A DNA stretch of 64,000 nucleotides from Escherichia coli (GTDB lineage Bacteria; Pseudomonadota; Gammaproteobacteria; Enterobacterales; Enterobacteriaceae). Within the stretch, counting starts at the first letter, position 1; every line of letters begins with the position of its first letter. The notes below the pieces were generated by a model. That model was not told the origin of the DNA and did not search any database. It saw nothing but the letters and a program-made list of their open reading frames with translations. The DNA is taken from NCBI RefSeq assembly GCF_046105845.1, contig NZ_CP151004.1, one strand, 5' to 3'. The position numbers and the translations under genes are program-made. This document shows, piece after piece, positions 58,180-58,619 of this stretch.

Positions 58180-58619
58180 TATGAGTTGCTTGTTTAAAGT
58201 TGGCTGGTTTTATTGGAATAGCTCAATAGTCAACACCATAAATTATAACACAAGTTACTTTTTCACCAGGCAACAAATCCATTTAAGCGAATATCTCTGC
58301 ACCTAATAGTTATAAATGCCACTTAACAGCCAGTTATAGTACCACTTGAAACTATATTACCAACAATAGTTAATAGCTTTCTTAACAATTTTCTTATCTT
58401 TAATTTGTATTTTGCTAAGATTTATCTTATGCTCACAAGTCGTATTTCCAGAGGGGAATAGTTAACAATCTTATATTTCCCTCTGCGCGCCTTTCCCACC
58501 CGCAGTATATAGTGCTGGCGGTATGAGGAAAGGGAGATTTCACAAGGATGTTATACTCAAAGTAGATAATCCTGATCTCAAGCGTACGTATTGTCCATGC
58601 GATGAATAAAGGAAAAGTT

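Follow-up and report, generated by a model that had tools for sequence, protein, structure and literature searches.

In the window, a stretch of 64,000 nucleotides from an Escherichia coli genome, cspH and gfcA are separated by 440 bp without any IS1, and we consider it very likely (probability of about 0.9) that this interval, at 58180-58619 on the plus strand, is the regulatory DNA native to the group 4 capsule export operon gfcABCDE-etp(-etk) and has never been interrupted. In this arrangement gfcA would retain its own promoter and leader, and transcription of the operon could proceed under native control.

The left edge of the interval is the stop codon of cspH (57967-58179, plus strand), an open reading frame for a cold-shock-like protein of 70 amino acids (Pfam CSD, E=3.5e-23) that is identical to CspH of enteropathogenic E. 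coli (EPEC) at 70 of 70 residues and whose coordinates agree with those of the annotated cspH of strain 2012C-4502 (WP_000087763.1). The preliminary description of this DNA had reported about 440 bp of AT-rich sequence without a transposase frame between the two genes. The length is exactly 440 bp and the GC content 35.2% (30.3% for 58180-58440), compared with 50.3% for the whole window and 48-58% for the gfc genes, and the list of open reading frames for 58180-58619 holds no transposase, just a 56-amino-acid frame extending out of cspH and one antisense frame. The interval is colinear with that of its relatives. We aligned it with ten E. coli alleles and two sister species (E. albertii and Escherichia sp. 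MOD1-EC7003); its distal part (58180-58337) is very AT-rich (GC of about 30%) and fast-evolving, shows 43-65% identity to E. albertii per 40-bp bin, and carries most of the differences found among the ten E. coli alleles. An Rfam search by E-value of positions 56800-59200 returned nothing inside the interval. On the far side of cspH, the same search detected the cspA thermoregulator RF01766 at 57415-57837 on the minus strand (158 bits, E=9e-43), which corresponds to the leader and start of cspG, a gene divergent from cspH, and a sub-threshold STnc220-like match at 57232-57312.

Downstream of the interval, the genes gfcA-gfcB-gfcC-gfcD-gfcE-etp follow cspH on one strand, in the order found in EPEC and in 2012C-4502. 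The first, gfcA (58620-58925), encodes a threonine-rich protein of 101 amino acids with a signal peptide and no Pfam family, given here in its RefSeq-type form, that matches EPEC GfcA at 99 of 101 residues; an AAGGA Shine-Dalgarno sequence at 58611-58615 precedes its ATG at 58620. It is followed by gfcB (59032-59676), coding for a lipoprotein of 214 amino acids (Pfam YjbF, E=4e-69; 214/214 identical to EPEC), gfcC (59673-60419; 248 amino acids with the N- and C-terminal GfcC domains of Pfam, 240/248 identical), gfcD (60419-62515), whose product of 698 amino acids is an outer-membrane protein of the YjbH family (E=3e-270; 694/698 identical), and gfcE (62561-63700), coding for a Wza-type polysaccharide export protein of 379 amino acids (Pfam Poly_export, SLBB and Wza_C; 379/379 identical). 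The last gene, etp (63688-64000), codes for a low-molecular-weight phosphotyrosine phosphatase (Pfam LMWPc) and is cut by the end of the window at 64000, so that the first 104 of its 148 codons are seen, all 104 identical to EPEC Etp; its coordinates were transferred from strain 2012C-4502, and etk lies beyond the window. GfcA to GfcE and the visible part of Etp thus have the EPEC lengths, no internal stops and 97-100% identity. The preliminary description regarded these genes as tightly coupled or overlapping, which is accurate for gfcB/gfcC, gfcC/gfcD and gfcE/etp (overlaps of 4, 1 and 13 bp, respectively) and inaccurate for gfcA and gfcB, which are 106 bp apart, and for gfcD and gfcE, which are 45 bp apart. 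Within the gfcA-gfcB spacer (58926-59031) we noted a 6-bp GC-rich inverted repeat, CCCGGT...ACCGGG, followed some 15 nt later by a run of T. For K-12, a Rho-dependent terminator zone has been reported at gfcA (PMC9160355), and the repeat or terminator zone may tune the ratio of gfcA to gfcB-etk.

EPEC O127:H6 E2348/69 is the prototype producer of group 4 capsule and the strain that defined the operon. Its gfc locus (ymcDCBA-yccZ-etp-etk) equals that of the window in gene order and orientation, and its IS-free interval measures 441 bp against 440 bp here and is 95.5% identical, with the roughly 4.5% of sequence difference located mostly in the distal part. The O157:H7 locus has the same layout, with an IS-free interval of 441 bp that is 94.6% identical to ours, and neither comparison reveals an insertion or deletion larger than 1 bp. 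The resemblance to capsule-making strains claimed earlier for the layout is therefore confirmed by colinearity with both. Elsewhere in the comparison with EPEC E2348/69, at 35680-39591 of the EPEC locus, the torS annotation of that strain reports a frameshift, and a lambdoid prophage carrying nleB2, nleC and nleD has integrated between torS and torT; torS is intact in the window, unlike in EPEC E2348/69.

The K-12 locus has the same flanking genes as the window, and alignment of the two maps IS1D (insA4/insB4), an element of 768 bp with a 9-bp duplication, to window positions 58587-58595, 24 bp upstream of the gfcA ATG, in agreement with the earlier placement of the K-12 IS1 between cspH and gfcA. 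The K-12 sequence aligns as two pieces that overlap by exactly 9 bp (CGTATTGTC) and flank the 768-bp IS1, whose insA end is nearest to gfcA and which points away from it; once the IS1 is removed in silico, the K-12 interval is 94.4% identical to that of the window. Occupied by IS1D in K-12, positions 58587-58595 are an empty target site in the window, since CGTATTGTC occurs there as a single copy. Using as reference the IS1D sequence extracted from the K-12 genome DH5a, a blastn comparison with the whole 64-kb window yielded only chance matches of 12-28 bp. The best match to either of the 23-bp IS1 terminal repeats in 58101-58700 has 10 mismatches out of 23 positions, and the alignment contains neither a second copy of CGTATTGTC nor an insertion relative to EPEC or E. 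albertii. The earlier assertion that IS1 is missing here accordingly holds for blastn matches, for duplications and for terminal repeats, the last of which had been named in the preliminary description as the sign in 58180-58619 that would speak against it. In K-12, the IS1 located 24 bp before the ATG would separate gfcA from its native promoter and leader. Two publications place the IS1 of K-12 in the promoter region of the ymc/gfc operon, unlike in pathogenic strains (PMC2516531, PMC12428005); the first of these cites Peleg et al. for this placement and mentions that, even with the IS1, K-12 does express etk in some conditions (Lacour et al. 2008, PMC2516531). The contrast between K-12 and IS1-free strains is already published, and our finding restates a known difference.

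Our survey of the 5,426 complete E. coli genomes in RefSeq indicates how common this state is. The gene cspH is present in 5,400 of them, and cspH and gfcA occur together in 3,535. We designed a 521-bp query whose match would be split by an insertion of 768 bp; it found the interval in 3,712 genomes, 3,060 of which have it uninterrupted. The K-12 IS1D junction was recovered in 405 of the 5,426 genomes, mostly laboratory derivatives of K-12 among the matches listed. In approximately 1,865 genomes the match ends just past cspH; cspH adjoins appA in every cspH-only genome among the matches listed, and the whole gfcABCDE-etp-etk operon is therefore deleted in those genomes, such that outright loss of the gfc operon is frequent, affecting roughly one in three complete genomes. 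E. albertii NBRC 107761 and Escherichia sp. MOD1-EC7003 have the same IS-free layout with an interval of equal length, and this synteny, common to E. albertii and a second Escherichia species, identifies the IS-free arrangement as the ancestral one. Judging from these genome comparisons, the IS-free interval is both the majority and the ancestral state in E. coli, and not a distinguishing feature of the window. The allele itself is uncommon: over 521 bp only about 8 of the 5,426 genomes reach 99% identity or more with it. It has 99.5-99.6% identity to the interval of strain 2012C-4502 and 94-97% identity to well-studied alleles, from which (K-12, O157, O104 and EPEC) it is 4-6% divergent. Positions 39001-64000 of the window (25 kb), on the other hand, have a best match of only 98.4%, to a different strain (2012C-4221), among the 5,426 complete genomes, which indicates a source lineage that at this locus is mosaic or has few representatives.

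Between the distal part and gfcA lies a conserved non-coding block (58338-58500, plus strand) with 78-95% identity to E. albertii. In its core, at 58378-58460, 36-38 of 40 positions are identical to E. albertii, which exceeds the identity of the adjacent end of cspH. Because of this conservation, we would place the operon's own promoter and operator region within 58338-58500, where our best guess would be the candidate sigma-70 promoter TTGTAT-N17-TATGCT at 58405-58433 on the plus strand, giving a leader of approximately 180 nt. This candidate has the second-best score of our position weight matrix (PWM) scan, 7.5 bits; the scan returned no sigma-70 candidate in the interval above the shuffled background (median maximum of 8.8), and a built-in scan of the plus strand of the interval for consensus promoters or terminators detected none. 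The nine full-length E. coli alleles share the candidate hexamers and spacer without change, the only alteration being a 23-bp deletion in the two B-lineage alleles, and E. albertii has kept the whole motif save the fourth base of the -10 hexamer. AT-rich DNA combined with the lack of a consensus sigma-70 promoter suggests that the promoter is weak and regulator-dependent, and probably silenced by H-NS.

The putative leader contains an 11-bp inverted repeat that could form an RNA hairpin (58450-58484, plus strand), and the predicted fold of the leader, computed from the single sequence, has an energy of -61.1 kcal/mol (z=-3.84 relative to shuffles). We considered a conserved structured RNA element and did not retain it: among 8 alleles or species, conservation is confined to the first hairpin and comes via one-sided changes only (G-U to A-U, A-U to G-U), the loop-closing pair of this hairpin is broken in two species, and the inner second hairpin is disrupted in several of the sequences, which is too little to claim such an element. 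The leader ends with a near-invariant stretch of 55 nt (58568-58622, plus strand) that includes the AAGGA at 58611-58615 and closes with the start codon of gfcA. Of the 12 aligned alleles, 11 agree completely over these 55 nt, among them E. albertii, which shows about 86% identity overall, and the E. coli allele HCP5S3_I2 has one substitution at 58588. The conservation of this stretch greatly exceeds that of the coding DNA next to it, and the K-12 IS1D sits inside it.

Upstream of this stretch, at 58542-58551 on the plus strand, is a putative CsrA-like motif, ACAAGGATGT, which we take to match the core of the CsrA SELEX consensus RUACARGGAUGU. Two copies of ACAAGGATGT occur in the window against 0.14 expected, the second at 62658-62667 in the early part of gfcE, both on the sense strand of the gfc operon. 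The leader copy is invariant in the 10 E. coli alleles, and its GGA is kept in E. albertii and lost in MOD1-EC7003. Leaders repressed by CsrA have at least two GGA motifs, one over the Shine-Dalgarno sequence and one upstream, ideally conserved and in a hairpin loop. In gfcA the second GGA is within the Shine-Dalgarno AAGGA, and the upstream GGA at 58542-58551 is predicted to be paired and not in a loop. No link between CsrA and gfcA was found in the searchable literature, and a CsrA site in the gfcA leader, as read from the motif, is a speculative lead only. We also considered RfaH control through an ops element. The gfc operon resembles the operons of the RfaH/ops (JUMPStart) group (rfb, waa, kps) in being a long surface polysaccharide export operon with a long leader; unlike them, it has no conserved ops and is not a member of the group. 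The sequence GGCGGTAT at 58519-58526 recalls the ops core and was rejected, having 2 mismatches to GGCGGTAGNNTG; no match to GGCGGTAGNNTG within 1 mismatch exists in the leader, and GGCGGTAT is not conserved among alleles, K-12 having AGCGGTAT and O157 having AGTGGTAT at this place.

Other E. coli genomes show a cluster of independent insertions and deletions at 58415-58440, a site that the window has in intact form. When these positions were taken as the centre of a 241-bp query, about 185 of 3,696 genomes had an interruption, and about 88 further genomes form a class with a 23-bp deletion. The events sampled from the interrupted genomes include at least three IS1 insertions, one insertion of the IS5 family and one 23-bp deletion. 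Strain 23AR1183 carries an IS1 in plus orientation with a duplication of 58418-58426, and TKEC21-17 an IS1A in minus orientation with a duplication of 58419-58427. In SCPM-O-B-9504, ISKpn26 (IS5 family) is inserted at 58415-58419 and an additional IS1A lies inside gfcB, and 2024CK-00474 has an IS1A junction at 58421 with gfcA deleted. The 23-bp deletion, of 58418-58440, is shared by BL21 and the B lineage and by TUM17668, and removes the candidate -10 hexamer; the interval of E. coli B/BL21 is IS-free and has the same flanks as that of the window, from which it differs by lacking these positions, the window being full-length there. The roughly 88 genomes of the deletion class comprise the B lineage and a few clinical isolates. 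A larger loss, of 58338-60256, was observed in ET846. The cluster overlaps the non-coding block that is best conserved, as well as the candidate -10 hexamer. IS1 is known to prefer AT-rich, bent DNA, and the cluster could reflect this preference, selection on capsule expression, or both. We found no report of clustering at 58415-58440 in the searchable literature.

We then weighed other readings of the interval. It might be IS-free and yet functionally silent, with point differences or strong H-NS-type silencing of the 30% GC upstream part keeping the operon off, in which case "intact" would have a structural meaning only. The rarity of the window allele, the lack of any sigma-70 promoter above background, and the levels of gfcA mRNA, approximately 30-fold lower in enterohemorrhagic E. 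coli (EHEC) than in EPEC, both IS1-free (Thomassin et al. 2013, PMC3853201), are compatible with such silence. Against it, the differences of the window allele are concentrated in the poorly conserved distal part (58180-58300), few of them fall in the conserved block, and the candidate promoter and the 55-nt stretch before the ATG are unchanged. We find this reading rather unlikely; a regulatory point change in the window allele is nonetheless conceivable on sequence grounds, given its 4-6% divergence from the studied alleles. The EHEC observations bear directly on what an intact interval can predict. Its IS1-free interval notwithstanding, EHEC showed no visible capsule in N-minimal medium (PMC3853201), and because of this and of the reduced gfcA mRNA, an intact interval is no predictor of capsule production: it is at most necessary for capsule, not sufficient.

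Transcription of gfc could otherwise come largely from read-through out of the co-directional cspH, which an IS would block, and our scan detected no intrinsic-terminator-like site between the two genes. We judge this to have little chance of being correct. A non-coding block whose conservation exceeds that of the coding sequence beside it speaks for DNA with a dedicated regulatory role, the natural insertions and the 23-bp deletion cluster on that block, and the plasmid used for complementation in EPEC is described as carrying gfcA "and its promoter" (PMC3853201). That an IS1 was once present and then excised, making the interval a revertant and not the ancestral state, is extremely improbable, as nothing favours it beyond the recurrent insertion of IS1 into the interval across E. 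coli, whereas the K-12 target 9-mer and the targets at 58418-58427 are each present in single copy, the interval holds no footprint or IS remnant, and E. albertii and another Escherichia species have the same uninterrupted interval.

A native, never-interrupted regulatory region thus remains our preferred reading of the interval. Beyond it, the observations could be joined into a single picture, in which a deeply conserved control module, composed of the putative promoter/operator block at 58378-58460 and a leader of about 180 nt with its hairpin, CsrA-like site and 55-nt segment, contains a spot of 13-26 bp at 58415-58440 that has been hit recurrently in nature and in the laboratory. We regard this joint reading as a tentative and doubtful proposal; if true, it would mean that selection has repeatedly favoured turning off or rewiring the export of group 4 capsule. 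The conserved block, the insertion cluster and the CsrA-like motif are unproven leads, and they are the only parts of this analysis that might repay more work.

The absence of IS1 upstream of gfcA is a textbook difference between K-12 and wild or pathogenic strains and the default of the species, and by itself matters little here; it can serve as an annotation note that the capsule export operon has no visible break within the window. An O-antigen capsule requires a Wzx/Wzy O-antigen cluster as well as expression of the operon, and its formation depends on regulators, on etk and on genes for the O-antigen; these, like waaL, lie outside what the window shows. Since the visible part of the gfc export operon has an intact structure, the isolate may be capable of making an O-antigen capsule, provided that it also has etk and the O-antigen genes and that regulatory conditions are suitable. 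The survey gives this locus a modest wider context, with the region upstream of gfc as a repeated target of IS elements and small deletions across E. coli, which may be of interest to those working on how the capsule is regulated or relying on K-12 and B strains as "capsule-null" hosts.
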